Program-made: the position numbers and the translations under genes | From: Syntrophothermus sp. DTU052 | GTDB lineage: Bacteria > Bacillota > Syntrophomonadia > Syntrophomonadales > DTU052 | Assembly (NCBI GenBank): GCA_001512495.1 | Contig: LFRU01000095.1 | Location: forward strand, 9,480-73,479 | Direction: 5' to 3' | DNA length: 64,000 nucleotides | Shown here: piece by piece, positions 2,558 through 50,607 of the stretch | How positions within the stretch are numbered: the first letter of the stretch is position 1 | How the letters are laid out: each line of letters opens with the position of its first letter | Notes under the pieces: model-generated | The model's database searches: none | Seen by the model: the letters and a program-made list of their open reading frames with translations, nothing else | What the model was told of the DNA's origin: nothing

Positions 2558-2576
2558 CTTAAATTAAGAATAATAG

Positions 2577-3137: not shown

Positions 3138-3165
3138 TTCTGTGTATTTAACAGGGAGTGTATTT

Positions 3166-13020: not shown

Positions 13021-13044
13021 AGCCTGATATACAGGCTTTTTTTT
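13021..13044 (+). terminator. intrinsic terminator-like hairpin just upstream of steA
   Basis: AGCCTG-ATATA-CAGGCT followed by T8. It lies 25 nt before the steA start. Confidence 0.6.
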
Positions 13045-13069
13045 GACCGGTATATTGGGGAGTGATAAC

Positions 13070-14191: not shown

Positions 14192-14308
14192 CACCGGGAC
14201 GAACCGCAGTCACAAGGTGTTTGAAGCAATACAAAAAAAGAGGAGGGCTGCAACCATTCCGAGCCTTAGAATGGTCCGTACTGCTGATTTGGAGTGGGGT
14301 GCTATTGA

Positions 14309-15211: not shown

Positions 15212-15870
15212 GGGTGGCGGCGATAGTCCCGGCATATAATGAGGAGAACCGCATCGCGTCCACCCTGAAGGCCATCCAGGAGATCCCGGAAATAAACGTA
15301 ATTCGTGTTGTAAACGACGGCTCAACCGATCGTACCGCTGAGATCGCCAGAGAATCCGGGGTGGAGGTTGTAAATCTTACCGCCAACGTGGGTAAAGGCG
15401 AGGCTATAAACCGCGGGGTACGGGGAGTGGAGGCTGATGTATTTATTTTCCTGGATGCGGATCTTGGAGATACGGCCCGGGAAGCGGCCAGGATTCTGAG
15501 GCCGGTCTTGAACGGGGAGGCGGACCTATGTGTGGCCAGGTTTCCACCCCCTAAGAAAAAAGGGGGTATTGGGATGGTGAAACGTCTGGCAGCCTGGGGC
15601 ATTGCCCGCGAAGGGATGATAGCTCGGGAGCCGCTGAGCGGTCAGCGGGCTATGACTTCTCAGGTATTACAGGATATTCTGCCCTTCCATTCCGGCTTTG
15701 GGATTGAAGTCGGCATGACCATCCGTGCACTACGACGGGGCTACAGGATTATCGAGGTACCGGTTCAGATGAGCCATGCCGAAACCGGCCGCAACCTCAA
15801 GGGATTCATCCACCGCGGGCGGCAGTTCCTGGATGTGGCCCGGGTGATACTGGCGGAGAACAGGAGGTAG
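15208..15870 (+). CDS. glycosyltransferase family 2
   Basis: AAIVPAYNEE...VVNDGSTDRT...LDADL motifs. ATGA overlap with steB. Confidence 0.8.
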   Translation: MRVAAIVPAYNEENRIASTLKAIQEIPEINVIRVVNDGSTDRTAEIARESGVEVVNLTANVGKGEAINRGVRGVEADVFIFLDADLGDTAREAARILRPVLNGEADLCVARFPPPKKKGGIGMVKRLAAWGIAREGMIAREPLSGQRAMTSQVLQDILPFHSGFGIEVGMTIRALRRGYRIIEVPVQMSHAETGRNLKGFIHRGRQFLDVARVILAENRR

Positions 15871-15874
15871 CAGA

Positions 15875-16717
15875 TTGGGCTGGGACCCTGGATACCTGGC
15901 GGCTTTTGTCCTTATCATGGCCATTTTGCTGGAGACGGTAGTGATGCATATTGTGCTGCCCATGCTGGCCCGCTATGGTGCGCTGAGAGAAAACTATCGT
16001 CGTGACCTGGTACCGGTGGCCGGGGGTATAACCTTTCCCATAACCGTCCTCTTGTGCTATATCCTTATCCAGCTGTCGACCGGCTATACCGGGAACAGCT
16101 TTAACCTTTACCTCTTGGCGGTAATGGGGATGGCTTTTCTGGGGTTTGTGGACGATATGCTGGGGCAGCGGGATTCTCTGGGATTTCGCGGGCATTTCGG
16201 CCGTCTGTTCAAAAAAGGGGAACTCACTACCGGAGCCTTGAAGGCATTGGGAGGAGGCATAATTGCTGTTTATGTCTCTCTTTTTTATTCCCGTACCCTT
16301 GGAGAATTCTTAGTAAATGTCCTGGTTATCGCTCTTTTCACCAATTGCATGAATCTGTTCGATCTGCGTCCGGGACGGTGTATCAAAGCCTTTGTACTTA
16401 TTTTTCTCCCCATGCTGGCGTATTCCGGCAGCTATTTAATCCTGTTTATTCCCATAGCCGGTGCGGTTTTGGCCTATTTTCCATACGATGTTAAAGCACG
16501 AGTAATGATGGGGGATACCGGTTCCAATGTTCTGGGGGTAACACTGGGCGTTATGGCGGTCTATGGACTGGAACTGCCGACCAGGCTGTTGCTCCTAGTC
16601 GTATTAATACTGCTGCACATTTTTACGGAAAGGTATTCGTTGAGTAAAATTATTGATAATAACCGTTTCTTACGTTGGTTTGACCGGTTAGGAAGGAGTG
16701 ACGGTAGTACTGGTTAA
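15875..16717 (+). CDS. MraY/WecA-like (GT4-family) polyprenyl-phosphate sugar-phosphate transferase, divergent
   Basis: About 10 TM segments with FLGFVDDMLG and NCMNLFDLRPG motifs. TTG start 7 nt after SD CAGGAGG. Confidence 0.55.
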   Translation: MGWDPGYLAAFVLIMAILLETVVMHIVLPMLARYGALRENYRRDLVPVAGGITFPITVLLCYILIQLSTGYTGNSFNLYLLAVMGMAFLGFVDDMLGQRDSLGFRGHFGRLFKKGELTTGALKALGGGIIAVYVSLFYSRTLGEFLVNVLVIALFTNCMNLFDLRPGRCIKAFVLIFLPMLAYSGSYLILFIPIAGAVLAYFPYDVKARVMMGDTGSNVLGVTLGVMAVYGLELPTRLLLLVVLILLHIFTERYSLSKIIDNNRFLRWFDRLGRSDGSTG

Positions 16718-17834
16718 CAGGGACAGATTGGTTGACAGTTTTTTAACTCTGGTCAGGATTGATTCGGAGTCAGGGCAGGAAGGGGCTGTACGGGACTACC
16801 TTAAGGAGCGGCTGCAGAACCTGGGAATGGAGGTCTATGAGGACGGAGCCGGCAGGGCCCTGGGGGGTGAAGCGGGCAACCTGATTGCCTGGAGACCGGG
16901 AAAGCTGTCCGGGCCGTCGATCTTCCTGGGTGCACACATGGACACCGTGGTGCCGGGAAGAGGCGTAAAACCGGTGCTGGAGGATGAAATCATCCGCTCT
17001 TCTGGAGACACCGTTCTCGGCGGCGATGACAAGGCCGGGGTCGCGGTCATCATGGAAGCGTTACAGGTGATTGACGAGCGGAATATACCCCACCCCCCGC
17101 TGGAGGTCATTTTCACCGTCAGTGAGGAGCAGGGGTTGATGGGATCGAAGCACCTGGATTTCACCCGGGTCAGATCCAGGATGGGTTTTGTTCTGGACAG
17201 CGATGGGGAAACCGGCCATATCGTGGTGCGGGCTCCTACCCAGAATGAGTTTTCCTTGACGGTGCTGGGCCGAGCCGCTCATGCGGGAATGAATCCAGAA
17301 GAAGGGCTGAATGCTATCTGCCTGGTGGCTTACGCAATTAATCACCTTAATATCGGGAGGATTGATGAGGAAACCACCTGCAACCTGGGTATTATCAGCG
17401 GGGGCAGGGCGCGAAATATCGTGGCTGACCGGGTGGAGCTCAAAGGTGAGGTCAGGAGCCTGACTCCGGCCAAACTGGATGCTGTTACTGGTGAGATGAT
17501 GGCGGTCTTTGAGGAGAAGGTCCGGGAAAAGGGAGGACGGTGTGAGGTGGAAGTCAGGCACCTCTATCCCGCCATCAATCTGGATCCGGAGGAACCGGTG
17601 GTGCAGATTGCAGTAAGAGCCGCCCGGGCTTTGGGTAAGGAACCGGTACTGGCACGCACCGGGGGCGGCAGCGATGCCAATATCTTCAACGGTCAGGGTA
17701 TACGCTGCGCCAACCTTGGGATCGGCATGAAAAAGGTTCACACCACCGAGGAGTATATTGCGGTGAAGAGTCTGGTGGACAGTACCCGCTATATCCTGCA
17801 GATTATTGAAGAGGCAGGGAAAGTGGGATTATGA
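16698..17834 (+). CDS. M20/M42-type metallopeptidase (PepT-like)
   Basis: GAHMDTV, GGDDKAG and SEEQG metal/catalytic motifs. The exact start is uncertain because GTG 16698 overlaps its own SD. Confidence 0.8.
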   Translation: MTVVLVNRDRLVDSFLTLVRIDSESGQEGAVRDYLKERLQNLGMEVYEDGAGRALGGEAGNLIAWRPGKLSGPSIFLGAHMDTVVPGRGVKPVLEDEIIRSSGDTVLGGDDKAGVAVIMEALQVIDERNIPHPPLEVIFTVSEEQGLMGSKHLDFTRVRSRMGFVLDSDGETGHIVVRAPTQNEFSLTVLGRAAHAGMNPEEGLNAICLVAYAINHLNIGRIDEETTCNLGIISGGRARNIVADRVELKGEVRSLTPAKLDAVTGEMMAVFEEKVREKGGRCEVEVRHLYPAINLDPEEPVVQIAVRAARALGKEPVLARTGGGSDANIFNGQGIRCANLGIGMKKVHTTEEYIAVKSLVDSTRYILQIIEEAGKVGL

Positions 17835-19275: not shown

Positions 19276-19806
19276 GTGGATTTCGCCGAGGTCAAAAAGA
19301 GCAGTCGCCAAATTTTTGCCGGAAAGATTATCAAGGTTAGGGTAGATACGGTGGAACTCCCCAACGGCAGGGAGGCTGCCCGAGAGTGTGTCGAGCACCC
19401 GGGAGCCGTGGCAGTAATTGCCCGGGATGACCAGGACCGGGTCTGTATGGTCCGGCAGTACCGCTACCCGGTGGGGGAGATGCTCTGGGAGATTCCGGCC
19501 GGCAAGCTCTCTCCCGGGGAAGATCCCCTGGAGTGCGCCCGCCGCGAGCTCTTGGAGGAAACAGGGATAACTGCTGCAACATGGGAGAAACTTTACTGCT
19601 ATTACACTACTCCCGGTTTCACCGATGAGGTAATGCACCTTTACCTGGCTACCGGTTTGATCCGGGGTGATAACCAACCGGACGAGGATGAGTTCCTCGA
19701 TGTGGAAATGTTTCCCTACCCGGAAGCCTGCGCCATGATGAGGCGTGGTGAGATCAAGGACGGCAAGACCCTGATTGCCCTGCTGCACCTGGGGCAAAGG
19801 GAATGA
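19276..19806 (+). CDS. nudF: ADP-ribose pyrophosphatase (Nudix hydrolase)
   Basis: Nudix box GKLSPGEDPLECARRELLEETG. GTG start 7 nt after SD AAAGGAGA. Confidence 0.85.
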   Translation: MDFAEVKKSSRQIFAGKIIKVRVDTVELPNGREAARECVEHPGAVAVIARDDQDRVCMVRQYRYPVGEMLWEIPAGKLSPGEDPLECARRELLEETGITAATWEKLYCYYTTPGFTDEVMHLYLATGLIRGDNQPDEDEFLDVEMFPYPEACAMMRRGEIKDGKTLIALLHLGQRE

Positions 19807-19861
19807 GTCGGGATGGACTTGGACAGCAGAATTATCTAAATGGACTGCAGGGAGAATCGAA

Positions 19862-21037
19862 GTGCAGTTATATTATGCTGACTTGCATGTTCATATCGGG
19901 CGCGCTCAAGGGCGGAAGATCAAGGTAACCGCTTCCGATAAGATGAACCTGGCCTATATCCTGAAGCACGGGGTCTTGGAGAAGGGCCTGCAGATGGTGG
20001 GTATTGTAGACTGCGGAAGCCCTCTGGTTTTGCAGGATATCGAAGAGCTGATCGAAGAGGGTGAACTCCAGCCCACCCGGAACGGGGATCTCATAAGCCG
20101 GCAGGGGGTTATGCTCCTGCTGGGGGTGGAGATTGAGAGCCGCGAAGGGGTTCATTTTATTGTCTATCTCCCGGACCTGGAGGCGGTAAAGACCTGGCAG
20201 AAAGTCATGCAGAGAAAAGTAACCAACCCCGTCTTGTCCACCCAGAAAACTTCCATGCGGGCAGTGGAGCTAATCGATCTGGCAGCGGTTCTGCGGGGAA
20301 TCTTCGTGATAGCCCATGCCTTTACTCCCCACCGCGGTGCCTACGGCTGCTGGGTTTACCGTCTATATGAGGGATTGGGTCAGCGGGTGAATCATGTTAT
20401 GGCTATAGAACTGGGGCTGTCATCGGATTCGGATATGGCGGATACGATTAGGGAGTCCCGCAAATATGCGTTTTTGTCCAACTCGGACGCCCATTCACCG
20501 GCGAACCTGGCCCGGGAATATAACCTTATTCGGATGGGCAGCCCGGGCTTTGCGGAGTTCAGAATGGCACTGACCGGTCAGAACGGGCGCCGGATCATGG
20601 CGAACTATGGGATGCATCCCCTCCTGGGCAAGTATCACCGTAGTTACTGTCCCCAATGCCGGGTAATTGCCAAAACCGATCAGGCAACCTTCACCTGCGA
20701 CACCTGCGAGCAGAAAATGATCCCCGGGGTATGGGACCGGATTCTCGCTATCAGGGATTATGAGACACCGCATCACCCTATAGGGAGGCCTCCCTATTAC
20801 TACCGGGTGCCGCTCCATTATATTCCCGGATTGGGGCCCAAAACATTTGCCCGGTTGCGCCGGGCATTCGGGAGTGAGATACAGATCATGGAACACGCGG
20901 ATCTTGAACTGATGAAGCGCATTATCAAACCTTCTGTAGTACACTATATCGAGAAAATGCGTAATAATGAGCTGGAGATAATTCCCGGGGGAGGTGGTTA
21001 TTACGGACAAGTTAAAAAAAGTAGTAATGACCACTGA
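19862..21037 (+). CDS. endonuclease Q-like PHP-domain protein (TIGR00375-type)
   Basis: N-terminal YADLHVHIG PHP metal motif and a C-terminal Cys4 cluster (CPQC...CDTC). SD AGGGAG precedes GTG 19862. The track start 19775 would overlap nudF. Confidence 0.6.
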   Translation: MQLYYADLHVHIGRAQGRKIKVTASDKMNLAYILKHGVLEKGLQMVGIVDCGSPLVLQDIEELIEEGELQPTRNGDLISRQGVMLLLGVEIESREGVHFIVYLPDLEAVKTWQKVMQRKVTNPVLSTQKTSMRAVELIDLAAVLRGIFVIAHAFTPHRGAYGCWVYRLYEGLGQRVNHVMAIELGLSSDSDMADTIRESRKYAFLSNSDAHSPANLAREYNLIRMGSPGFAEFRMALTGQNGRRIMANYGMHPLLGKYHRSYCPQCRVIAKTDQATFTCDTCEQKMIPGVWDRILAIRDYETPHHPIGRPPYYYRVPLHYIPGLGPKTFARLRRAFGSEIQIMEHADLELMKRIIKPSVVHYIEKMRNNELEIIPGGGGYYGQVKKSSNDH

Positions 21038-21725
21038 TGCCAGCGGGGCGGTATCCGCAGCTCAGCAGGGTTTGGCGGTAATGATAGTGGATGTTATTGA
21101 TATGTCAACCACTCTGGAGAGTGCCCTCGATGCCGGGGCCGTAAAAGTCTTCGGTGCCAGTCCTGATTTTACCCGCGCACCGGTGAAAGTGGATCCGGAA
21201 CGAATCGGGAGGATTGCCGCCCGTACAGCCCTGACTGAAGGGGTAGGGGTAATTGTGGTATCAGAACCCCGGACCGGTGGGGATGAGGAGCGGCTCCAGC
21301 GGTGTCAAAAATTAATGGAAGGGCTAAATAGCGAAGGGGTTATCATCGAAGCCGTAGTGCCCAACCTGGGAGCTGAGACCCCTCTGCTCACCCATTTTGA
21401 GAACCGGGTAGTGGTGGCAGTGACCGATACCGGGGGAGTCGCCTTTGACGCCGCCTACCAGGTCACCGATCAGGTCATTACCGGAACCATTGCCCGGACT
21501 CTCCGGCAAAAGGGAACCGCACCGGCTACTACTGCCGCCCTGCGCGCACTCACCCTGATGGAACACGCGCCTGGAATTGCCGTGGTTGCTGCCAGCCGCA
21601 ATTCCCAGGAAGACATCCTGGCTGCTCGTTACATACTGGAGCTTATTAAGGAACTGGCCGGTACCAGAGATATGGTATGCGAAGACCTGACGAACTCGGC
21701 CGGCAGCACCCGGGACACCCGCTAG
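20994..21725 (+). CDS. hypothetical protein, possibly ComB (2-phosphosulfolactate phosphatase)-like fold
   Basis: VMIVDVIDMSTTLESALDAGA near the N-terminus and SRNSQEDILAARYIL near the C-terminus resemble ComB-family signatures. Start ambiguous (GTG 20994 or ATG 21027). Confidence 0.35.
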   Translation: MVITDKLKKVVMTTDASGAVSAAQQGLAVMIVDVIDMSTTLESALDAGAVKVFGASPDFTRAPVKVDPERIGRIAARTALTEGVGVIVVSEPRTGGDEERLQRCQKLMEGLNSEGVIIEAVVPNLGAETPLLTHFENRVVVAVTDTGGVAFDAAYQVTDQVITGTIARTLRQKGTAPATTAALRALTLMEHAPGIAVVAASRNSQEDILAARYILELIKELAGTRDMVCEDLTNSAGSTRDTR

Positions 21726-29630: not shown

Positions 29631-29696
29631 CCCGGGCATTTTAGCCCGGGTTTGCTATACCAGATTATTTCACCGGGACTGCAGAAGATCCCGGTG
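29631..29696. terminator. two GC-rich hairpins between convergent sigF and the DNRLRE-like gene
   Basis: CCCGGGC-ATTTTA-GCCCGGG (29631-29650, followed by TTTG) and CACCGGGA-N10-TCCCGGTG (29671-29696). Confidence 0.45.
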
Positions 29697-29817: not shown

Positions 29818-30666
29818 TCACTCATCATGAGTTGCGGCACTGACCAGATAGGCTCCCTGTTCTCCGGCAGAGGTGAAATTAAGGCTTGCTGCCCTTACCG
29901 CGGCCGAATAATTAATCACCCGCTCCATCTGAGGGGGGATGGTGAACGCTGTACTAGAATCAATAACCCTTACTCCCACCGGTTGCACAACCTCAACCGC
30001 GCCTACCAGGTTTCCATCTGTCTCGTTCCGAACCAGAAATGTGATCTGTTCTTGCCCGACCATGTTAATGAATGATGACTGTCTGGGAGCCCCAGTAAGG
30101 ATTTCGAATGGATAGAACGTCGTGGTTCCACGGTACCAACGCACGGTTAATGAGGGCCACAGCCGACTGTCCGGAAAACGGGTGCTCCTAAAACCAAGGA
30201 TATTGTTATTGGCGTTTTCCAGACCCCGCAGTGCGAAACCATTATTGGGTCTGGAACCGTTATACCAATTGATTACTATGCTAGTTACAATAGAAGATAC
30301 TGTGGAGGGTGCAGGACCAGGAACCCCCTGCGACCCAATATCGGATACTGCCGGCTGGTTGTTGAAGGTAACAGTACTTTGATTCCAGGGCTCAAGTACA
30401 TCCGTGACGCGTAAATCGGCAACACCGGGATTGTCATTGCGGTACATGGCTAGCTGCAGAGTCGCATTTTCAATGGAGCTGTTCGGCGGAATCCCATGAT
30501 AAGGCGTGAATAAGTCAAACTGCAGTAAGCTCCGATAGATGTCATTCTCGTTTGTGAAACTGCCAACAAACAGGACATCCCCTTGGGTCCGGTTAAAGAA
30601 ATTTCTGTCCGGATAAGCCGATGCAATATATACGTCCTGGACTGGAGAAAATGTTGTTTCAGGCAC
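29818..30666 (-). CDS. DNRLRE/CBM96-like domain protein with an unassigned ~105-aa C-terminal domain, no signal peptide
   Basis: YRSLLQFDL, ATLQLAMYRNDNPG, LEPWNQSTVTFNNQP and NNGFALRG motifs. GTG start 6 nt after SD AAGGAGGTGA. Confidence 0.5.
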   Translation of the reverse strand: MPETTFSPVQDVYIASAYPDRNFFNRTQGDVLFVGSFTNENDIYRSLLQFDLFTPYHGIPPNSSIENATLQLAMYRNDNPGVADLRVTDVLEPWNQSTVTFNNQPAVSDIGSQGVPGPAPSTVSSIVTSIVINWYNGSRPNNGFALRGLENANNNILGFRSTRFPDSRLWPSLTVRWYRGTTTFYPFEILTGAPRQSSFINMVGQEQITFLVRNETDGNLVGAVEVVQPVGVRVIDSSTAFTIPPQMERVINYSAAVRAASLNFTSAGEQGAYLVSAATHDE

Positions 30667-30887
30667 GATATCACCTCCTTCTTAACCTATCCTATTCAGC
30701 AAAAATGGAAGATAATACCATATTGATCCCATGATGGTTCGGGACGGCTCTCAGGCATTGCGCGGGCTGCATAAAGAAATTGGATAATTGCGCGGGAGGC
30801 CGGTCTATTACTGCTGGTGTGTATGACCGACCACAGTTGCAGATTATTCGATTCTACGAGTTTTATTCCAGGATCTGCTTATGCAGT

Positions 30888-31676
30888 CTACCGGGTGATG
30901 GGGGTTATAAAGTCCCGGGTTTTCCAGCATCTGATACAGTAGCTCAGGTATGCGTAGTCTTCCAGGGGGTTGGTATGGGGTTCTGATGAATGATGGCGGA
31001 TGGTCACGTAATTGTACCTGTCGACCGAGAAGATCTTCCGGCCTGCGGCCAGGCAGTCCTTTTGAAACTCACTGTCCTCGCCGTAAGTAATATCACGGAA
31101 TTTTATGTGCCGAAAAACCTCTTTTCTCACGATCATGGTGGCGCCGATAACATATGAGACATATGAGAACTGGGGATAGGCCTCATGGTAGGCCAGGGTA
31201 GAAATGTCCTGGAAGTAAATGAACCGGGCTGATTTACCCACGATATCGGCGTAAGTGTAGTCGAAGGCTGCCATTTCTCCGCCGAGGAAATTGGGGGCAT
31301 AATAGTCGTCATCATCAAACTTGGCCACATAATCAAAACTGGCGTGTTCCACCGCGGAATTGTAGCACTCACCTAAAGAGACCTTTTCATCAAGCTGAAA
31401 CACCTTAATTCCGCTATATCCTTTAACCCGCCATTGCCATTCTTTCCTGCTCATACTGTTGTTGTTGAGGATAATGATTAGTTCTTTGGGCTGGTAGCGT
31501 TGGCGCAGATAGCTCCGGATTACATTCTCCATACGGGAGGGGCGATTGGTGCACGTCATAATGGATACCCCTGGCGGATATGGCCGCTGGTAAACTACCG
31601 TGGCGCCATCCGGTTGTCCGCCGGGTAATCCCGGATAACATATAGGGTTTTTCTGCCGGCCACCGGTTTTGACCAA
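30888..31676 (-). CDS. glycosyltransferase family 2
   Basis: VSIMTCTNRPSRMENVIRSYLRQ GT-A N-terminus and a FDDDDYY acidic motif. TTG start 6 nt after a strong SD GAGAGGAG. An internal ATG at 31559 is an alternative start. Confidence 0.7.
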   Translation of the reverse strand: MVKTGGRQKNPICYPGLPGGQPDGATVVYQRPYPPGVSIMTCTNRPSRMENVIRSYLRQRYQPKELIIILNNNSMSRKEWQWRVKGYSGIKVFQLDEKVSLGECYNSAVEHASFDYVAKFDDDDYYAPNFLGGEMAAFDYTYADIVGKSARFIYFQDISTLAYHEAYPQFSYVSYVIGATMIVRKEVFRHIKFRDITYGEDSEFQKDCLAAGRKIFSVDRYNYVTIRHHSSEPHTNPLEDYAYLSYCIRCWKTRDFITPITR

Positions 31677-31719
31677 GTTTTGCTCCTCTCCCCAAAGGTC
31701 CCTCTCGGGGTTATTAACC

Positions 31720-31747
31720 TAGTATATGGTAAAGCGGTGAGGACGGT
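31720..31747 (-). promoter_or_regulatory. sigma-K-type promoter candidate for the minus-strand GT2/DNRLRE unit
   Basis: The minus strand reads AC, 17-nt spacer, CATATACTA. This is a perfect match to AC-N16/17-CATANNNTA and lies about 44 nt upstream of the TTG start. Confidence 0.4.
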
Positions 31748-31781
31748 TACCGTTCAAAGGGACTGGAAGCCATTAGTTTTC

Positions 31782-31809
31782 ACCACCATAATAAGCGTCA
31801 CATAAGATG
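31782..31809 (+). promoter_or_regulatory. sigma-K-like promoter candidate for the plus-strand unit
   Basis: AC, 17-nt spacer, CATAAGATG: one mismatch at the last base of the -10. It lies about 45 nt upstream of TTG 31854. Confidence 0.3.
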
Positions 31810-31853
31810 AGAAAAGAGAAGGCCTCTATTGTTAGAAAAGGAGAGAGAAGTGA

Positions 31854-32642
31854 TTGCTCCGGGCATCAATTCTTATAACCTCTTTTATGAGACCGCACCT
31901 TCTGAGATGGAATCTGTTTTCTTTGGCCAGGCAGGAAATCGGGTTTGACTTCGAGACTATTGTTTTGAATGACGGCATCCCGGATGAAACGGAGGCCCTC
32001 TGCCGTGAATACCAGGATGTATTAAACCTTAAATACGTTTTCACGGGACAGAGAAACCAGAGGGGAGAGCTTCTTTACCGGGTTCCGGGTTTTGCTGTCA
32101 ATATCGGGGCCCGCATTGCATCGGGGGACATCCTGATCATCTCATGTGCGGAGATGTTTCATATCAATAATACCATCGGACTGCTCACGGCTCCTCTGGG
32201 CTGCGATCCGCGGCTCATGGCTACCGCTATCGGTATGGATGATGACGGTTCGTTTCTTGACTACCTTAATGAAAAACACGGGAGATTCGACTACCAGGCC
32301 TATCACTACCGGTATCCCCGATTAAACACCAGTCTTCCCTTCCTGATGGCCGTTCACCGTGATGAATTTTTCGCCATTGGTGGATACGACGAGGATTTTA
32401 CCGGATTTGCCTATGACGATAATGATTTTGTGGAGCGGCTGCTGGCCAACGGCTGCCGTCTCTGTCTGACCCAGGCCAAGACCATCCACCTGTACCATGT
32501 AAGGCATGATCTCGGCTTGGAGCAGTCACCGGAATACCTGTATAACCAGAATCTTTATCTCTGCCGCAAGGGGCAGATTGTGCGCAATATCGGCAGAGGA
32601 TGGGGTAAGATTATACCTCATACTGCGCAGCCAAAATTCTGA
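31854..32642 (+). CDS. GT-A fold glycosyltransferase (GT2 / galactosyltransferase-like)
   Basis: ASILITSFMRPHLLRWNLFSLARQ, IVLNDG, GGYDEDFTGFAYDDNDFVERL. TTG start after SD AAAAGGAGAGAGAAG. Confidence 0.7.
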   Translation: MLRASILITSFMRPHLLRWNLFSLARQEIGFDFETIVLNDGIPDETEALCREYQDVLNLKYVFTGQRNQRGELLYRVPGFAVNIGARIASGDILIISCAEMFHINNTIGLLTAPLGCDPRLMATAIGMDDDGSFLDYLNEKHGRFDYQAYHYRYPRLNTSLPFLMAVHRDEFFAIGGYDEDFTGFAYDDNDFVERLLANGCRLCLTQAKTIHLYHVRHDLGLEQSPEYLYNQNLYLCRKGQIVRNIGRGWGKIIPHTAQPKF

Positions 32643-32661
32643 TAAACGGGGGGCTATTCCC

Positions 32662-34032
32662 ATGCCGATAAATATTCCGGCCAGCGGGGCAACCCACATA
32701 TCCGAGTTTTACGGCGACCGTAACCCCATGGCCGTGGATCGTAATCTCTATATAAGTCGGTTTCAAGGAGTGGGCGATAGATACCGCTCGCTGGTCAGGT
32801 TTGATCTCCGGCACCTGTCGGAGCTTCTACCAGCCGGTGCTGCGGTGGGCAGCGCTTACCTGCAGCTGACGGTTACGCGCAATGACATTCCGTCGGGGAG
32901 TATCAGTGCCGACATTTGGTGCTGTCATGAGGACTGGGATCAGGCAGGTGTAACCTGGAATAACCAGCCGGTCACGGCGGAGAACCCTGATATAACTTTC
33001 ACCATACCTGCAGGGTGGATGGGAATGATGACTCTGGACGTAACTACCCTGGTCAGGGACTGGATCGACGGCCACTATTCGAATTACGGGTTTATGCTCC
33101 GGGGTGACGAAGATAACAGCCGGATAGTAGCTTTCAGTCCCGAGGTGTACCTGGTCATTGTACCCTCGAAGGAAAGATTTGCGGGGCCGGAGGTGCTGGG
33201 TGACACCGTGCTGATAGATTACCCGCTGCGCCCCGAGCCCCGGTATGGATACGGCAAACCCCCTCATTCCCGGTTAAATCACCTGCTCAACCGCAACCGA
33301 CCAACCTATATAAAAAACCTTGAATATATTTGGGGTCTGAGAGCTTTGTTCCGAGAAATTCCCGCGGCAGTGGAGGAACCGGCTTCCATTCCCCGGTGGC
33401 ACAACCCGTGGATTTCCGGCTTTGATGCCATAACTCTTTGTAGTTTTCTGGCTCGGAACAACCCCAGGAGGTATGTGGAAATAGGATCCGGGGAGTCAAC
33501 CCGTTTTGCCCGCTGGACGATAAACCGCCTGCAGTTGCGGACCAGGATAACCTCCATTGATCCTAACCCGCGGGGTGAGATTGACAGCCTGTGTGACCGT
33601 CTACTCAGGAAACGAGTCGAAAACATCGATCTGAGTATCTTTTCCGAGCTCCAACCTGGTGACATAATTTTTGTTGATTCCTCCCACCGGGTCTTAATGA
33701 ATTCTGATGCCACTGTGGTTTTTCTCGATGTTTTGCCCAACCTCCGGCCGGGGGTGTTGGTCCATTTCCATGACATATTCCTCCCCGACGATTACCCGCC
33801 GGAATGGATTGGCCGCTATTACTCGGAACAGTACCTTCTGGCCGCCTATCTGCTGGCCGGGGGAGAGGCAATCGAGGTGCTGCAGCCAAATCACTTCATC
33901 AGCCGTGATCCCGAGCTATCGAGATTCCTGGCACCACTTTGGGAGGATATGCCTCATATTACCGGACACGGGGCGTCTTTCTGGTTTAGGGCCGACGCAG
34001 GGTCAGCAAGGGCTGCCTGGGAAGCGGTATAA
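32662..34032 (+). CDS. fusion of a DNRLRE/CBM96-like domain and a class I SAM-dependent methyltransferase-like domain
   Basis: N-terminus has YRSLVRFDL, AYLQLTVTRNDIP, WDQAGVTWNNQP, NYGFMLRG. C-terminus has YVEIGSGESTRFA, ITSIDPNP, IFVDSSH, HFHDIF. ATG 32662 is preferred over track start 32506, which overlaps the upstream GT by 137 nt. Confidence 0.5.
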   Translation: MPINIPASGATHISEFYGDRNPMAVDRNLYISRFQGVGDRYRSLVRFDLRHLSELLPAGAAVGSAYLQLTVTRNDIPSGSISADIWCCHEDWDQAGVTWNNQPVTAENPDITFTIPAGWMGMMTLDVTTLVRDWIDGHYSNYGFMLRGDEDNSRIVAFSPEVYLVIVPSKERFAGPEVLGDTVLIDYPLRPEPRYGYGKPPHSRLNHLLNRNRPTYIKNLEYIWGLRALFREIPAAVEEPASIPRWHNPWISGFDAITLCSFLARNNPRRYVEIGSGESTRFARWTINRLQLRTRITSIDPNPRGEIDSLCDRLLRKRVENIDLSIFSELQPGDIIFVDSSHRVLMNSDATVVFLDVLPNLRPGVLVHFHDIFLPDDYPPEWIGRYYSEQYLLAAYLLAGGEAIEVLQPNHFISRDPELSRFLAPLWEDMPHITGHGASFWFRADAGSARAAWEAV

Positions 34033-34076
34033 TCCAACCGGCGGGGATAGAGAGGACTAAAGTTGGGGGTGCTGAT

Positions 34077-34997
34077 TTGAAGATCCTGGTTACCGGGGGC
34101 AAGGGTGTTGTTGGTACTGCGCTGGTTAGGTGTCTGAAGAGACGGGGACATGAGGTATGGGTGTGTGACCTGAAGCACAGCCATGAGGAAAGGTATATGC
34201 GCTGTGATGTCGCTAAATACAGGCAGCTCCTTCAGGTTTTTGAAAAGCAGGAGTACGATTTGGTTTACCACCTGGCGGCTGAGTTCGGCAGGTGGAACGG
34301 TGAGGATTACTATGAAGACCTGTGGGTGACCAACTGCATAGGCACCAAAAACATGCTGCGTCTGCAGGAAAAATTCGGATTCAACATGGTTTTTGCCAGC
34401 AGTTCCGAAGTATATGGCGATTACCGGGGGCTGATGAGAGAAGAGGTAATGGACAGTGAGGAGATCCGGCAGCTGAACGATTACGCCCTATCCAAGTGGG
34501 TTAACGAACTGCAGATCATGAATGCCGAGCTGATGTGCGGCAGCCCGACCGTCAGAGTCAGGCTGTTTAATACCTACGGTCCGGGTGAATACTACACACC
34601 TTACCGGAGTGCGATCAGCATATTCGCCTATAAAGCCTTGCATGACCTGCCTTACACCGTCTACCTCGGCCACCGGCGAACCTCCCTGTATATCGAAGAC
34701 TGTGCCGAGTGTCTGGCAAATATTGTTGAGAACTTTCGAAGGGGTGAGGTTTACAACCTGGCGGGGCAGGAGGTTCATGACATGAAAACGGCCTCCGACC
34801 TGGTTCTCGAGTACCTGGGCAAAGACGACCGCCTGGTAAACTACGTTCCCGAGGAAAGGTTCACGGTTCGGGACAAGATTCCTGATAACAGCAAAGCTGT
34901 GAGATTGCTCGGCCTTAACCCCAGAGTCAGCCTACGTGAGGGAATAGCAAGGACCGTTGATTGGATGAAGGAGGTATATCAGCCGGCACGGCGCTAA
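34077..34997 (+). CDS. NAD-dependent sugar epimerase/dehydratase (short-chain SDR)
   Basis: ILVTGGKGVVGTALV Rossmann motif and the YxxxK context (YALSKWV). Confidence 0.8.
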   Translation: MKILVTGGKGVVGTALVRCLKRRGHEVWVCDLKHSHEERYMRCDVAKYRQLLQVFEKQEYDLVYHLAAEFGRWNGEDYYEDLWVTNCIGTKNMLRLQEKFGFNMVFASSSEVYGDYRGLMREEVMDSEEIRQLNDYALSKWVNELQIMNAELMCGSPTVRVRLFNTYGPGEYYTPYRSAISIFAYKALHDLPYTVYLGHRRTSLYIEDCAECLANIVENFRRGEVYNLAGQEVHDMKTASDLVLEYLGKDDRLVNYVPEERFTVRDKIPDNSKAVRLLGLNPRVSLREGIARTVDWMKEVYQPARR

Positions 34998-35055: not shown

Positions 35056-35084
35056 GGATAACTTCACTAAAAACGTACATAATA
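35056..35084 (+). promoter_or_regulatory. forespore (sigma-G/F-type) promoter candidate upstream of spoVAD
   Basis: GGATA, 17-nt spacer, CATAATA compared with GHATR-N17/18-CATXHTA (4/5 and 7/7). Confidence 0.3.
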
Positions 35085-36990: not shown

Positions 36991-37995
36991 ATGAGAGTTG
37001 GAATTCCCAGAGGATTATTCTTTTATCACCTCTATCCGCAGTGGAAAACGTTTTTTAATTATCTGGACTGGGAGGTGGCAACCTCCCCTCCCACCAACAA
37101 GAAGATGGTCGAGGCCGGGGTAATGATGGCGGTGAGCGAGGCCTGTTTCCCGGTAAAGGTGCTCTATGGTCATATTCTGGAACTGGCGGGCAGGGAAGTT
37201 GATTACATTTTCATGCCCCGCCTGGTGAGCATTGAGCGGCGAAGCTATATCTGCCCCAAGTTTATGGGAATCCCCGATATGCTGCGGGCCCAAATCCAGG
37301 GATTACCGCCCCTAATCGACCTGTGCATCGATGTGAGTCGTAATGAAGGGGACCTGTATCGAGAGCTGGATCGCTGGTCAAAAAAGATGGGGCTGAAATC
37401 GGGACGGGTTAGGAAGGCCTGGAATGATTCCACCCGTGCAACATGCGAACTGGAAGCCATATGCCGCCAGGGCCATACTCTGGGGGAGGGGATAGGTGTA
37501 TGGGAGGGCAAACCGGCAGCAAAACGGGGTACCGGTGATCTGACCATTGGTGTTCTGGGCCACTGCTATGCGCTGAATGACCGCTTAATCAGTCTGGGGT
37601 TGTTCGAACGTTTGCGGGAAATGGGGGCTGCTGCCGTTACCAGTGAGATGCTCGATCCCCAACTAATTGAAGAGGCAGCCGCCAGGCTGCCGAAAAGGGT
37701 CTTTTGGACTGTGGGACGGACGATGGTAGGCACCGCCCTCCTGCTCGATCAAAATCCGGGTGTTGATGGAATGATATATCTGACATGCTTTGGCTGCGGA
37801 TCGGATTCCATGATGGCAAAGATTATCGAACACCGTGTGAACAAGCCGTTTATGCTGCTTACCGTTGATGAGCACAGCGGCGAAGCCGGTGTAGTAACCC
37901 GGCTGGAAGCATTCTGCGATATGCTGCGGAGAAAAAGGAGGCTGGAGCTTGCGCATAACCTTTCCCCATATGGGGAATTCCTATATAGCCATTAG
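36991..37995 (+). CDS. acyl-CoA dehydratase activase-related protein (DUF2229), part 1
   Basis: MRVGIPRGLFFYHLYPQWKTFFNYLDWEV N-terminus is typical of this family. Confidence 0.65.
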   Translation: MRVGIPRGLFFYHLYPQWKTFFNYLDWEVATSPPTNKKMVEAGVMMAVSEACFPVKVLYGHILELAGREVDYIFMPRLVSIERRSYICPKFMGIPDMLRAQIQGLPPLIDLCIDVSRNEGDLYRELDRWSKKMGLKSGRVRKAWNDSTRATCELEAICRQGHTLGEGIGVWEGKPAAKRGTGDLTIGVLGHCYALNDRLISLGLFERLREMGAAAVTSEMLDPQLIEEAAARLPKRVFWTVGRTMVGTALLLDQNPGVDGMIYLTCFGCGSDSMMAKIIEHRVNKPFMLLTVDEHSGEAGVVTRLEAFCDMLRRKRRLELAHNLSPYGEFLYSH

Positions 37996-39091
37996 CTCGC
38001 TGTTGAAGGAACTGGGACTTGATGTAGTGGTCCCGCCGCCGTGCAGTAAGCGGACTCTGGAGTTGGGGATTCGTTATTCTCCGGAGTTTGTCTGCCTGCC
38101 GTTTAAGATCAACCTGGGTAATTACCTGGAAGCCATGGACCAGGGAGCAGAAGCTATTCTGATGGCAGGTGGTTGGGGACCGTGCCGGTTTGGCTATTAT
38201 GCCCAGGTGGAACGGGATATTCTCCAGGATCTGGGCCGGGAGTTTAACATGGTGATAATCGAAGCACCCGACTCGAAGCTGCCCAGCCTGCTGAATCAGG
38301 TACGGCAGATGGGAATCAAAACCTCCTGGTTTCAGGTTTGGTCGGCAATACGCCTGGCCTGGGAAAAACTGAAAGCCGTTGACCGTTTGGAGGCACTGCA
38401 GCACTACTGGTTACCCCGGGTGGCTGACAAGAGCCGCTGCGAGAGCATGGTTGACGCCGGGCTGAAATCGGTTGATGGGTGCGGCGAGCTGCGAGAGATG
38501 GCCGCGCTTGTTGATAAAGTTGACCGGGATTTGTCCGGGTTAGGGCGGGATGTGGATAATAACAACCCGATCCGGATAGGATTGGCAGGTGAGATCTATA
38601 CCCTTTTGGAGCCCTTTGCCAATTACTACCTGGAACGTCAACTGGGCCGAATGGGGGTTGAGGTTGTAAGAGATGTAAACCTTACCCAATGGGTAAATGA
38701 CCACCTTTTTGGGGGGGTCCTACCATCTGCTCCCAGCCTGCACACGACCCTGCCGCTGGCCACGCCCTACCTGCAGTACTGGGTGGGCGGGCATGGACGG
38801 GAAACCGTAGCCAGCACCGTCGGCTATGCGCGCCAGAAACTGGATGGAGTAATCCAAGTGGCTCCCCTGACCTGCATGCCGGAGATTGTAGCCCAATCAG
38901 TGCTCGAGAAGGTCCAGGAGGAAGAGGGGATTCCGGTCATGACCATGTATTTTGATGAGCATGCCGGAGAAGTTGGGATTATCACCCGGCTGGAGGCGTT
39001 CCTGGATATGATCAGATGGCGAAAAATGAAAACGGGAGATACCGATGCTAAAAATTTATCTGGGAGTAGACGTAGGCTCTGTCAGCACTAA
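37949..39091 (+). CDS. acyl-CoA dehydratase activase-related protein (DUF2229), part 2
   Basis: RITFPHMGNSYIAISSLLKELG N-terminus. TTG start 7 nt after SD AGGAGG. Overlaps part 1 by 47 nt. Confidence 0.65.
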   Translation: MRITFPHMGNSYIAISSLLKELGLDVVVPPPCSKRTLELGIRYSPEFVCLPFKINLGNYLEAMDQGAEAILMAGGWGPCRFGYYAQVERDILQDLGREFNMVIIEAPDSKLPSLLNQVRQMGIKTSWFQVWSAIRLAWEKLKAVDRLEALQHYWLPRVADKSRCESMVDAGLKSVDGCGELREMAALVDKVDRDLSGLGRDVDNNNPIRIGLAGEIYTLLEPFANYYLERQLGRMGVEVVRDVNLTQWVNDHLFGGVLPSAPSLHTTLPLATPYLQYWVGGHGRETVASTVGYARQKLDGVIQVAPLTCMPEIVAQSVLEKVQEEEGIPVMTMYFDEHAGEVGIITRLEAFLDMIRWRKMKTGDTDAKNLSGSRRRLCQH

Positions 39092-40082
39092 TCTGGTGGC
39101 TCTTGATTCCCAGTTGAAGGTTCGGGAGACGGTTTACATTAGAACCATGGGACATCCGGTAAAGGCCACTCAGCAGGGATTTAAGGAACTGCAGTCCCGA
39201 CTGCCGCAGATTGAGGTCCTGGGAGTCGGAGCTACCGGCAGCGGTCGTAATCTGGTGGCTGCCATGTTAGGAGCCGATGAAGTTAAGAATGAAATCACCG
39301 CCCATGCGGTAGCGGCTACCCATTTCCATCCCGAGGTTCGTACCGTTTTTGAGATCGGCGGACAGGATTCAAAGCTCATACTGCTGCGGGATGGGGTGGT
39401 AATCGACTTCGCCATGAATACCGTGTGTGCGGCCGGAACCGGTTCATTTCTGGATCAGCAGGCCCTGCGCCTCAGTATACCAATTGAAGAGTTCGGCTGC
39501 TGGGCGGCCAGGGCTCGGCAACCGGTACGAATCGCCGGCCGGTGTGGAGTTTTTGCCGAGTCCGACATGATTCACAAGCAGCAGATGGGCTATCCGACCG
39601 AAGAGATAATCGCCGGACTGTGCGAAGCCTTGGCCCGCAACTACCTTAACAACCTCGGGAAAGGGAAGGAGATCCTGCCTCCGGTGGTATTCCAGGGGGG
39701 GGTAGCCGCTAATCTGGGCTTGAAGCTGGCTTTTGAAAAGATGCTCACTACTGAGATCATGGTGCCCGAGTACTACAATGTCATGGGAGCAATTGGAGCT
39801 GCGCTGCTGGCCGCCGAGTCCGTAAAAGACCGCCAATCCTCGTTTAGGGGTGCCGATTTCATCCTGGATGGTGAGTTTGAGACCCGGAGCATGGAATGCA
39901 ACGGGTGTCCCAACCAGTGTGAAGTAGTTTCAATTCACCGCCAGGGACAGGTGCTGGCTTACTTCGGAGACCGCTGCCGCCGCTGGGATGCGTCACTCAA
40001 GAGCAGTAAAGTAGTCAGCCGGGAGTTGAAAAAAACAGCCCGGCAGCCGGTTTTCAAAACCCGGGAGCGCTTAAGCCGGTAG
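39045..40082 (+). CDS. BcrAD/BadFG (HgdC-like) activase ATPase
   Basis: Actin-fold motifs GVDVGSVSTN, GATGSGR, EIGGQDSK. The two cluster-ligand Cys contexts are NTVCAAGTG and GRCGVFAES. An extra C-terminal CNGCPNQC is present. Confidence 0.8.
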   Translation: MLKIYLGVDVGSVSTNLVALDSQLKVRETVYIRTMGHPVKATQQGFKELQSRLPQIEVLGVGATGSGRNLVAAMLGADEVKNEITAHAVAATHFHPEVRTVFEIGGQDSKLILLRDGVVIDFAMNTVCAAGTGSFLDQQALRLSIPIEEFGCWAARARQPVRIAGRCGVFAESDMIHKQQMGYPTEEIIAGLCEALARNYLNNLGKGKEILPPVVFQGGVAANLGLKLAFEKMLTTEIMVPEYYNVMGAIGAALLAAESVKDRQSSFRGADFILDGEFETRSMECNGCPNQCEVVSIHRQGQVLAYFGDRCRRWDASLKSSKVVSRELKKTARQPVFKTRERLSR

Positions 40083-48651: not shown

Positions 48652-50607
48652 TTAATCTTCTTCCAGGTGAATCAGGAATTTCCCGGTGCTTCCCTGCCAG
48701 TTGGTGTCAAGCACCTTGTATTCAACCCCGGCTATACGTATCCTGGCCCCGATCAGGTTGTAGTTGGTACCCTTATAGCTGTAACGGGTGGGATCAAGGA
48801 TAATCACGTCGTCAAAGTCTCTCCAGTTCCCACCGGTATAGATGTAAACCGGATTAGTGATGCTTGCCTGCAGCAGCAGACCCTTGCTGTAGAAAAGGTA
48901 ATTGGTGGGCTGTCCGGAACTGGTAGACGATTCTGAAGCCCTGATTACCACCATGTTCAGGGTGGTGTCATAATCAATCTCGTCAATATCATGGATCCGG
49001 CCGTTAAAGCGGCACTTAAAGGAGGCATCCAGATTATACTGGCGCCCGCCGATGCGCATAACGTTGCGGCTTACCACCAAAACGCTGTCAAGATCATAGG
49101 GAGTACCATCCCTGATTATCTGCACCTCGTCAACGTCATAGTATTCATTATTGATGCGCACCTTGTCAAAATCGGCCAATTCACAGTAAAAGGTGAATTG
49201 CCTATCATAGACCCTGATGCCTTCAATGGTGTAGTACTCGCCGTCGATTATCATGGTTACATCGTCCGGTTCATAGGTCTTGTTGTCGACACTGAAATTG
49301 CCTGAAGCATCAATTGTGACCTCGTTGAGGTAGTACCGGGTGTTGTTGATAACAAAATCAATGCGGGAAATGCGGCTCATATTAAGCCTTGAGTTCCCAA
49401 CATATATATCCGCAATGTCAGACAGGGTAAGGCGGTTATAGATAACCGGATCGGTTTCGGTTAGCTCCAGCGCAGTGTCATCTGCAGTCAGGATAACCCT
49501 TTCCACAATATAGAACTGGTTGCCCGGGGCGATGGTAACCGATCTGTCGCGCAGGTCAATCTGCTTTCCATCCACCCTGACTGTGTACCGGTCGATGATC
49601 TCCATGTCATAAAGGTAGTAATCGCCGTAAACCCGACCAATGTAGAGCCTAACGTACTCCGGGTCATACCGCAGATTGCCCAGGGCCAAACGGTTGAGCC
49701 GCATGGATTCAGGAACTACAAAGAGGCTGCTGCCGGAGACGCTGAGGCTTCTAACCACATAGCGGTTGTTATTTACAATCAGATCGGGGTAGCCGGTCCC
49801 GGCGTTCAAAGAATACAGGTAGGCGTTATTGACGAAGAGAGAATTCCCCGAGTATCTGAGGGTATTAATCCGGACCTCATTAAACCCGATTTTCAGGTAC
49901 ACCGGCGTGGTCAGGAAATCGTAGGTGCGGCCGCCCACCACGATCCGGTTTAGAATCCCGGAACCCAAAGAGGGAGAGGTAATTTTTTGGGAAAGCTTTT
50001 TGAGCATGGCGCAGGACTGGGCGCGGGTGACCGGGGTAGACGGCCTGAAGGTTCCGTCATTATAACCTGCAATCAATCCCAGGTTGTACGCCGATACTAT
50101 ATACCCACGATAAATGCTCCTGTCCACGTCAGATTTATCGGCAAAGGTAGTGGCACTGCTGCTGGGAGGCTGCCCCAGGGCCCTTACCATCATGGCTGCG
50201 GCCTCGCTGCGTTTCAACGCCTGATCGGGTTTGAAGGTGCCGGAGTACTCGCTTGTCACTACAATACCCTCACTGACGGCCCGGTTGATCAGGCCCCGGG
50301 CCCAGTGATTTCGGATATCACTGAAGCTGTCGGTTCCCGAACTGGAAGCATTAAGCCCCTTTATGTTCATGATTATCGTCAGGAATTCGGCCCGGCTAAT
50401 AGTGCGGTCCGGGCGAAAGGTATTGTCGGGATAGCCTTTTATGTACCCCTCATTCACGAGGTCATTAATATCCTGTTTCGCCCAGTGATTATCGATGTCG
50501 GTAAAGGCTGCGGCTGTTGCCCCGGTAAACGGAGCCAGTAAAAACATGCTGATTACCATGCCGACCAAAAGCAACCTGACAGTCGTTCGTTTTCGCATTA
50601 CGCTCAT
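48652..50607 (-). CDS. S-layer-homology (SLH) domain cell-surface protein with a degenerate repeat region
   Basis: Signal peptide, then three SLH repeats (FTDIDNHWAKQDINDLV..., FSDIRNHWARGLINRAV..., FADKSDVDRSIYRGYIVSAY...). A ~430-aa region of short repeats follows. Confidence 0.8.
   Translation of the reverse strand: MSVMRKRTTVRLLLVGMVISMFLLAPFTGATAAAFTDIDNHWAKQDINDLVNEGYIKGYPDNTFRPDRTISRAEFLTIIMNIKGLNASSSGTDSFSDIRNHWARGLINRAVSEGIVVTSEYSGTFKPDQALKRSEAAAMMVRALGQPPSSSATTFADKSDVDRSIYRGYIVSAYNLGLIAGYNDGTFRPSTPVTRAQSCAMLKKLSQKITSPSLGSGILNRIVVGGRTYDFLTTPVYLKIGFNEVRINTLRYSGNSLFVNNAYLYSLNAGTGYPDLIVNNNRYVVRSLSVSGSSLFVVPESMRLNRLALGNLRYDPEYVRLYIGRVYGDYYLYDMEIIDRYTVRVDGKQIDLRDRSVTIAPGNQFYIVERVILTADDTALELTETDPVIYNRLTLSDIADIYVGNSRLNMSRISRIDFVINNTRYYLNEVTIDASGNFSVDNKTYEPDDVTMIIDGEYYTIEGIRVYDRQFTFYCELADFDKVRINNEYYDVDEVQIIRDGTPYDLDSVLVVSRNVMRIGGRQYNLDASFKCRFNGRIHDIDEIDYDTTLNMVVIRASESSTSSGQPTNYLFYSKGLLLQASITNPVYIYTGGNWRDFDDVIILDPTRYSYKGTNYNLIGARIRIAGVEYKVLDTNWQGSTGKFLIHLEED

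Follow-up and report, generated by a model that had tools for sequence, protein, structure and literature searches.

In a 64,000-nucleotide stretch of Syntrophothermus sp. DTU052, an uncultured member of the Syntrophomonadaceae that degrades fatty acids (contig LFRU01000095.1, positions 9,480 to 73,479; hereafter the window), we identify a five-gene block, located between the sporulation genes sigF and spoVAD, which encodes two soluble glycosyltransferases (GTs), two proteins with carbohydrate-binding modules (CBMs) of the CBM96/DNRLRE type, one of them fused to a methyltransferase (MT), and a nucleotide-sugar enzyme. Based on the sequence, we consider there to be an even chance that this block serves the mother cell in making a methylated glycan of the spore surface, which would probably contain xylose or uronic acid. 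We infer that the cassette would be expressed specifically during sporulation, and that its product would be destined for the spore surface.

All five open reading frames (ORFs) of the block were confirmed in the window sequence, none of them can be extended upstream, and independent gene callers make the same five calls on identical contigs from anaerobic-digester metagenomes, which are labelled as a Syntrophomonadaceae metagenome-assembled genome (MAG). The minus strand carries GT2a (30888..31676), which has a TTG start codon after the Shine-Dalgarno (SD) sequence GGAGAGGAG and whose product is a soluble family 2 glycosyltransferase of the GT-A type bearing a DDDD motif, and DNRLRE282 (29818..30666), encoding a leaderless 282-aa protein with an N-terminal CBM96/DNRLRE module (aa ~3-175) and a predicted C-terminal jelly roll (aa ~176-282), and preceded by the strong SD sequence AAGGAGGTGAT. 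The plus strand carries GT2b (31854..32642), encoding a soluble GT-A glycosyltransferase with a C-terminal region of the beta4GalT/ppGalNAcT type (GGYDEDF); the CBM96::MT fusion (32662..34032), with a CBM96/DNRLRE module at aa 12-158 and a class I S-adenosylmethionine (SAM)-dependent methyltransferase at aa ~183-449; and a dehydrogenase/reductase of the extended short-chain type (SDR; 34077..34997), a nucleotide-sugar enzyme of the Mth373 type. Searches with Pfam and NCBIfam hidden Markov models (HMMs) bore out this five-gene content and all the domain calls, which a first-pass annotation had made from the sequence alone, and identified the flanking genes as sigF (TIGR02885, 1e-88) and spoVAD (PF07451, 5e-116), the latter followed by spoVAE(A).

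The two DNRLRE-like domains had been described as paralogs, and we find them to be 34% identical over 151 aa (E 6e-19). In the DNRLRE282 protein, NF033679 (E 1.4e-29) and the CBM96 family PF24517 (1e-13) match over aa 3-175, and in the fusion the DNRLRE match (4.6e-24) covers aa 12-158; the scores of the two copies are 103.3 and 85.3 bits for NF033679 (cut-off 34), and 51.9 and 52.7 bits for PF24517 (cut-off 26). The second half of the fusion matches Methyltransf_24 (PF13578) at aa 272-372 (8.3e-11; 43.1 bits, cut-off 26.3), and its SAM motif, E93-x-G95-S96-G97, together with D120, is invariant in 15 homologs of the MT; a profile search of PDB found no solved relative of this MT family below E 0.2. 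The CBM96::MT fusion is restricted to ~7 clusters from Syntrophomonadaceae, and the MT alone is widespread. Characterised CBM96 members form part of disaggregatase, of S-layer proteins or of lyases that are secreted, and bind uronic-acid polymers, namely alginate and chondroitin sulfate (PMC9971899). The predicted fold of DNRLRE282 superimposes on two solved CBM96 structures, 7VBO (TM6-N4 of an alginate lyase) and 8WAB (a chondroitin-sulfate-binding CBM), with TMt scores of 0.68-0.77, although the binding modules predicted here are only 16-20% identical to solved members. The copies in the window also differ from known CBM96 modules in architecture, with a methyltransferase attached to one and a predicted jelly roll following the other, and in being leaderless, so that neither is expected to have the extracellular location that is typical of the family.

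Both glycosyltransferases belong to PF00535, which matches, in each case above its cut-off, GT2a with 51.1 bits (2e-13; acidic metal-binding motif FDDDDY) and GT2b with 32.7 bits, the latter matching PF02709 (Glyco_transf_7C) as well with 37.5 bits. The start region of GT2a is invariant in 5 orthologs. The N-terminus of GT2b resembles the chondroitin synthase K4CP (E 1.9e-10), and the GT2b family, found mainly in Syntrophomonadaceae, is well conserved, with D40, E100/H103, D129-D130 and Y-D-E-D as invariants; a canonical DxD motif is not obvious in GT2b. Among NCBIfam models, the two enzymes give weak matches to WcaA, EpsE, TuaG and PglI.

The SDR matches the Pfam Epimerase family (E 8.8e-41), contains the GxxGxxG and YxxxK motifs as TGGKGVVG and YALSK, and aligns over its full length with Mth373 of Methanothermobacter thermautotrophicus (PDB 8W3U/9AR1; E 3e-108, 365 bits), a protein of an archaeon that is encoded in a glycan cluster related to pseudomurein; E-[FY]-G-R-W, S-x-E and Y-A-x-[ST]-K are motifs common to the two. 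A co-crystal with UDP-xylose led to the proposal that Mth373 is a UDP-xylose synthase, and the SDR also matches human UXS1 (1e-22). We therefore class the SDR as a probable UDP-glucuronate decarboxylase, i.e., a UDP-xylose synthase (UXS). The gene ugd, whose product would provide the substrate predicted for the SDR, adjoins the SDR gene in two distant relatives (L095 and L096, described below), and is absent from the 64-kb window. The uronic-acid-polymer binding of known CBM96 members fits a cassette that is linked to both ugd and UXS.

Our analysis shows that none of the five block proteins contains a hydrophobic segment resembling a signal peptide or a transmembrane segment, with maximum KD19 hydrophobicity at or below 1.44 in all five, compared with 2.49 for the signal peptide of the neighbouring PBP5. 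For the two DNRLRE-like proteins, these low hydrophobicity peaks, and the fact that their ORFs cannot be extended upstream, support the earlier proposal that they lack a signal peptide and a transmembrane segment. The block had likewise been said to lack machinery of the Wzx/Wzy type, which we find to be true both of the block and of the orthologous loci: no priming transferase, flippase, polymerase or ABC exporter is encoded in the block or in loci L001, L010, L011, L014, L015, L095 and L096.

The evidence that points to sporulation comes from the position of the block between spoIIA and spoVA, from endospore-appendage (Ena) genes near relatives of its genes in L005 and L094, and from the promoter regions, in which matches were scored against Bacillus consensus sequences. 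GT2a is preceded by a sigma-K-type match on the minus strand (31720..31747; GGTAAC-N17-CATATACTA), and the operon of GT2b, CBM96::MT and SDR by one on the plus strand (31782..31809; CAC-N17-CATAAGATG), each located 43-49 nt from the start codon, with values of 48 nt for GT2a and 49 nt for GT2b. The 177-bp divergent region thus holds 2 of the 5 relaxed sigma-K matches found in 64 kb, where ~0.015 would be expected, and both are correctly oriented. In five orthologous loci both blocks of the GT2a and GT2b footprints are kept while the spacers diverge. The sigma-K-type promoter matches mentioned in the first-pass annotation are thus present, correctly placed and oriented, and conserved, whereas their frequency in the window as a whole is at the level of chance; only placement and conservation carry weight here, and a consensus match is no proof. 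The motif AC-N17-CATA also occurs upstream of GT2b in L095 and L096, and a -10 element, CATAAGATGAG, identical to that of GT2b, precedes the SDR-MT unit of L096. No good match to a sigma-70-type promoter was found in the intergenic regions of the block.

DNRLRE282 has a two-block promoter-like motif of its own (30688..30719, minus strand; GGTAtnAT...N...AATAnnnTA), identified from upstream alignments and with sigma-K/E-like spacing. In all nine upstream regions of the DNRLRE282 family that were examined, orphan genes included, we find G-TA-nCAT...AATAnnnTA with the same spacing and at a variable distance from a strong SD sequence. An alternative assignment of TGGTATTAT, upstream of DNRLRE282, as an extended -10 element was rejected, as the orthologs have TATCAC at this place, in which the key final T is gone, and the orphan copies have GTAACAT. 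In locus L094, a gene for an A_ENA endospore appendage (17371-17787) has a perfect sigma-K-type match, GTAAC..N..CATATAATA, and GTAAC at -35 is common to the orphan DNRLRE282 copies, to GT2a and to the A_ENA gene in Syntrophocurvum. We also observed that this A_ENA gene lies within 6-7 kb of a GT2b/MT-GT2 cluster in L094.

The minus-strand genes had been described as a single unit. We find instead that GT2a and DNRLRE282 are two transcription units and do not form an operon, because the 221-bp spacer between them contains the conserved promoter-like motif of DNRLRE282, and because 1-6 unrelated genes intervene between them in relatives. On the left, a G+C-rich hairpin with T-runs on both strands (29631..29650), found by a terminator scan, resembles a bidirectional terminator and lies where sigF and DNRLRE282 converge. 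On the right, the block is bounded by a sigma-G-type match (35056..35084, plus strand; GGATA-N18-CATAATA), 148 nt upstream of spoVAD, which indicates that spoVAD is served by a promoter of its own. The presence of this match where one is expected indicates that the Bacillus consensus transfers to this organism, and it fits an expression of spoVA in the forespore, as known from Bacillus; a positive control for sigma-E gave no clear match upstream of spoIIM. A search of Rfam found no regulatory RNA in the block.

Comparison of the sigF-spoVAD junction across related genomes, which the first-pass annotation had suggested, showed that the block is present in five further loci (L014; L015; L011 and L012; L010; and, in part, L016), and it is placed between spoIIA and spoVA in at least five lineages, that of the window and four or more besides. 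A SpoVAD scan of a genome collection returned only three close relatives, followed by distant Clostridia; SpoVAD is 90% identical to that of the window in L014, 86% in L015, and 76% in both L011 and L012. In L011 and L010, unrelated genes lie on both sides of the DNRLRE gene and separate it from GT2a and from sigF; among them are genes for Bmp lipoproteins, a SpoIIE-type phosphatase, a GGDEF protein and a metallo-beta-lactamase. The distant relatives L095 and L096 (the latter a 500-kb contig) contain the arrangement GT2a(-)<->GT2b-CBM96(184 aa)-ugd(-)-SDR-MT(275 aa), in which the CBM96 module and the MT are separate proteins, and the standalone CBM96 of L096 has no leader. Compared with the window, the L096 proteins are 52% (GT2a), 65% (GT2b), 67% (SDR) and 56% (MT) identical, and the L096 CBM96 is 41% identical to the N-domain of the fusion and 27% identical to the 282-aa protein. 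Homologs of GT2b and of the MT also share a contig in Syntrophomonas palmitatica. Since L095 and L096 carry GT2a, GT2b, CBM96, ugd, SDR and MT, the cassette is ancestral in the Syntrophomonadaceae, and in the clade of the window it has moved to the spoIIA/spoVA junction, ugd has dropped out, and CBM96 has become fused to the methyltransferase. The fusion here of what are separate genes of one cassette in L095 and L096 constitutes a Rosetta-stone link between glycan binding and methylation.

The block had been described as an inserted island. These findings show it to be no insertion of foreign DNA, but an older cassette of the family that was moved and rearranged in this clade. Nor is it compositionally distinct, as a somewhat higher AT content judged by eye had suggested: its G+C content (0.509, compared with 0.524 for the window) ranks 62 of 234 windows of equal size, which is not significant, and only the part at 29.5-31.7 kb is mildly low (0.486). 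A compositional island or horizontal insertion was therefore rejected, as G+C content is unremarkable, there is no tRNA gene and no integrase or transposase gene at the borders, and the cassette is ancestral in the family.

Taken together, these features suggest the following mechanism. Both divergent units would be read from sigma-K-type promoters, as their conserved consensus footprints indicate. The Mth373-like SDR, judging by its homology and by the ugd neighbour in relatives, would turn UDP-glucuronate into UDP-xylose or a near relative of that sugar, and the soluble GT2a and GT2b enzymes may add sugars directly onto their acceptor, a protein or a glycan, with neither a lipid carrier nor an exporter involved. 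The CBM96-like domain, as suggested by the fusion and by the adjacent separate genes in relatives, could anchor the fused methyltransferase to the nascent chain for methylation, such that the glycan would be both built and O-methylated wholly in the cytoplasm. Most likely, the mother cell uses the system at a late stage, on the outside of the spore that is developing within it; this surface can be reached from the mother-cell cytoplasm, and CBMs and GTs that lack leaders or exporters could therefore act there.

The closest parallel is found in Bacillus subtilis, where the sps genes encode soluble glycosyltransferases and nucleotide-sugar enzymes that are sigma-K-dependent and expressed in the mother cell (PMC7439481). 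The sps/cge systems (spsA-L/spsM and cgeAB/cgeCDE) and the block both comprise nucleotide-sugar enzymes and soluble, leaderless GTs (SpsA, for example, belongs to GT2), and no export genes are found here. The logic proposed here, of enzymes acting on a spore surface within reach of the mother-cell cytoplasm, is that of the Bacillus systems; the block carries conserved sigma-K-type motifs, from which expression of the Bacillus kind may be predicted. They differ in chemistry, with a UXS-like SDR and an O-methyltransferase here in place of the legionaminic acid or rhamnose pathways there, and Bacillus has neither a CBM96-type partner nor a CBM::MT fusion. A second parallel is the O9a system of Escherichia coli, in which a chain terminator, the kinase/methyltransferase WbdD, works alongside a cytoplasmic CBM that belongs to the ABC transporter Wzt. 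This system provides a precedent for a cytoplasmic CBM acting together with methylation of a nascent glycan; however, it is lipid-linked and ends in ABC export, and we see no transporter, kinase or homology to it here.

Several observations weigh against a spore-surface role. There is no ortholog here of any Sps or Cge protein: no Sps/Cge equivalog was identified by NCBIfam, with the best matches far below the cut-offs. Archaea and bacteria that do not sporulate contain homologs of both the SDR and the MT at ~55% identity, those of the MT being found in many non-sporulating phyla and sometimes fused to GT1, and the function of Mth373 was assigned from a crystal structure rather than an enzyme assay. 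In L096, spoVAD-spoVAEB-DUF2229x2-BcrAD and a thiamine operon are followed ~9 kb downstream by the cassette, which is bordered by thiamine and transporter genes rather than by sporulation genes. Sigma-K matches across the window occur at the rate expected by chance (2 vs 2.4 expected; 5 vs 5.3 when relaxed), and the first -10 base of the DNRLRE282 motif is A where the canonical base is C. In addition, the link between DNRLRE282 and the cassette is weak, because most homologs of DNRLRE282 have no GT neighbour; this link, which consists of adjacency in one clade, a shared domain type and a similar promoter class, is the weakest step of our interpretation.

Some of these observations would fit a vegetative cell-envelope glycan, e.g., a secondary cell-wall polymer, S-layer glycan or exopolysaccharide, made via an undecaprenyl-phosphate-linked intermediate at the inner membrane face, with priming and transport encoded elsewhere. 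GT2 enzymes of this size commonly use lipid-linked intermediates, as the weak matches to WcaA, EpsE, TuaG and PglI would also suggest, and the wide occurrence of the MT in non-sporeformers and the position of the L096 cassette outside any sporulation cluster point the same way, as does the presence of genes for SLH-domain proteins both in the window (48652-50607) and near members of the DNRLRE282 family. A further point in favour is that the window itself contains a GT2 gene and a gene for a MraY/WecA-like GT4 enzyme (15208-16717). We nevertheless regard an envelope glycan as unlikely, in that a polymer outside the cell would be beyond the reach of the two CBM96-type modules, which are leaderless, the cassette has no linked transporter or priming gene in any of seven loci, and the conserved promoters are of the sigma-K type in intergenic regions that have no good sigma-70-type match.

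Alternatively, the acceptor could be a protein of vegetative cells, e.g., flagellin or pilin, glycosylated within the cytoplasm. The flagellin O-glycosylation islands of Clostridioides and Campylobacter combine an MT and a nucleotide-sugar enzyme with soluble GT-A enzymes and have no export genes, which is the logic of the cassette described here; GT2b has a C-terminal motif of the ppGalNAcT/beta4GalT type, and in Desulforamulus (L013) a homolog of the MT adjoins a YjfB_motility gene. With no flagellin, pilin or flagellar gene adjacent to the cassette in any locus, with promoters that are sigma-K-like and not sigma-D-like, and with a CBM-type module that implies a glycan ligand and not a protein ligand, we consider direct glycosylation of such a protein to be distinctly improbable. 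Least probable of all, and hardly to be expected, is a methylated polysaccharide that never leaves the cell and is read by cytoplasmic CBM96 lectins, by analogy to the mycobacterial polymethylated polysaccharides (methylglucose lipopolysaccharide and methylmannose polysaccharide, MGLP/MMP) that buffer long-chain acyl-CoAs. Such a polymer would account for soluble GTs and an MT without export genes, and for the leaderless, i.e., cytoplasmic, CBM96 modules, and it would suit a host family that lives by beta-oxidation; genes for acyl-CoA dehydrogenase, enoyl-CoA hydratase and thiolase adjoin members of the DNRLRE282 family in L009 and L094. This explanation is built on analogy alone, however, no homology to the mycobacterial enzymes came to light, although no search was aimed at it, the cassette has no acyltransferase or hydrolase typical of the mycobacterial pathways, and the conserved promoters are again of the sigma-K type.

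If the spore-surface interpretation is correct, the block would provide a compact, conserved candidate module for a methylated spore glycan containing xylose or uronic acid. Spore-surface glycans govern adhesion, hydrophobicity and dispersal; what is understood of them comes from Bacillus and, to a lesser extent, from Clostridioides, and not from the syntrophic fatty-acid oxidisers that drive anaerobic digesters. The block would also be the first case of CBM96-type modules inside the cell, one of them serving as the substrate-targeting domain of a methyltransferase, an architecture that is of interest for glyco-engineering. Finally, it would add a small family of lectin-like proteins, comprising two beta-sandwiches and having their own sporulation-type promoter, as possible structural proteins of the outer spore.

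Structure prediction for DNRLRE282, and for its C-terminal ~105 aa, which had been proposed in the first-pass annotation, returned a CBM96 fold and a jelly roll. The AlphaFold2 (AF2) model (pLDDT 87.6) consists of two beta-sandwich domains, of which the N-domain matches 8WAB (TMt 0.77, E 6e-9) and 7VBO (TMt 0.68). The C-domain (~105-107 aa) has no HMM assignment and was modelled as an 8-strand jelly roll (pLDDT 89.5), with its closest fold in YomS (6I5O, TM 0.69); the endospore-appendage subunits Ena2A, Ena3A and Ena1B score 0.46-0.49, and nucleoplasmin and capsid jelly rolls ~0.45-0.5. The C-domain thus shares its jelly roll with the C-terminal domain of YomS/XepA (SPbeta/PBSX prophage) and with Ena subunits, all of them oligomerising or self-assembling folds, but the similarity is one of fold only, at 11-15% identity, and jelly rolls are very common. 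Neither an Ena Pfam match nor an Ena-type N-terminal connector was found in DNRLRE282. Speculatively, this separately transcribed, leaderless protein could help to build an outer layer or an appendage of the spore, as a lectin-like component that attaches to a glycan of the kind proposed above. A phage origin, which the fold of YomS/XepA had raised, was rejected, as 50,697 phage records contained only three weak matches to the DNRLRE domain (29-30% identity).

The DNRLRE282 family comprises ~25 clusters, nearly all of them from Syntrophomonadaceae MAGs, and outside the clade of the window the genes of this family stand alone in varied, unrelated surroundings, without a GT gene nearby. In L010 (10001-11968) we observed tandem DNRLRE282 paralogs, 80% and 57% identical to the window protein and each with the conserved upstream motif, which indicates that the family grows by local duplication; in L005 (2436-4382), genes for F-ENA endospore appendages are located 6 kb from a DNRLRE282 homolog. 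The DNRLRE282 gene is also unusually similar between lineages, with 95-99% nucleotide identity to L014 and L015, compared with 88-92% for its neighbours and 54-69% for the flanking intergenic regions. Its synonymous divergence (dS) is 3-4-fold below that of its neighbours in three comparisons, for example 0.10 vs 0.27-0.45 with L014 and 0.41 vs 0.94-1.5 with L011. Codon bias was rejected as the cause, as bias is not strong (effective number of codons, Nc, 54.5; third-position G+C content, GC3, 0.50, the lowest in the region), and so was an overlapping gene, as there is no conserved ORF in an alternative frame. The low dS could result from gene flow between lineages or from constraint on synonymous sites.

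In other Clostridia, the sigF-spoVAD interval contains spoVAC, with or without spoVAA/AB-like genes; neither spoVAC, for which displaced copies were also sought, nor spoVAEB was found in the 64-kb window or in the loci of its clade (L001 and L010-L016). In the window, spoVAD is followed only by a gene of the SpoVAE(A) type, and in L096 by spoVAEB. Directly downstream of spoVAD/E, at 36991-40082 (plus strand), are genes for two DUF2229 proteins and a BcrAD/BadFG-type ATPase, a triad that resembles activators of 2-hydroxyacyl-CoA dehydratases, and whose linkage to spoVA is kept in the window, L011 and L096. The contig L095 (GCA_050258735.1), labelled as a Deltaproteobacteria MAG, is syntenic gene for gene with the Firmicute-type contig L096, including a gene for an SH3/Cu_amine_oxidN1/Amidase_3 protein, and because of this synteny its taxonomic label is probably a binning error; the label of L003, 'Planifilum sp.', may likewise merit checking.

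Elsewhere in the window, a segment at 13043-16717 (plus strand) encodes SteA-like and MctB-like proteins, followed by a GT2 enzyme (15208-15870) and the MraY/WecA-like GT4 enzyme (15875-16717), which form a second, membrane-linked glycosylation pair at a distance of 13 kb from the block. At 2565-3150 (plus strand) there is an OLE (ornate large extremophilic) RNA of full length (RF01071, 492 bits), and the ORF that directly follows it (3142-3747) encodes a small membrane protein with a weak CNNM match, presumably an OLE-associated protein. Upstream of spoIIM, at 19775-21725 (plus strand), two consecutive ORFs of 420 and 243 aa have no Pfam match, and are also called on the identical contigs L001 and L002, again with no match in Pfam.

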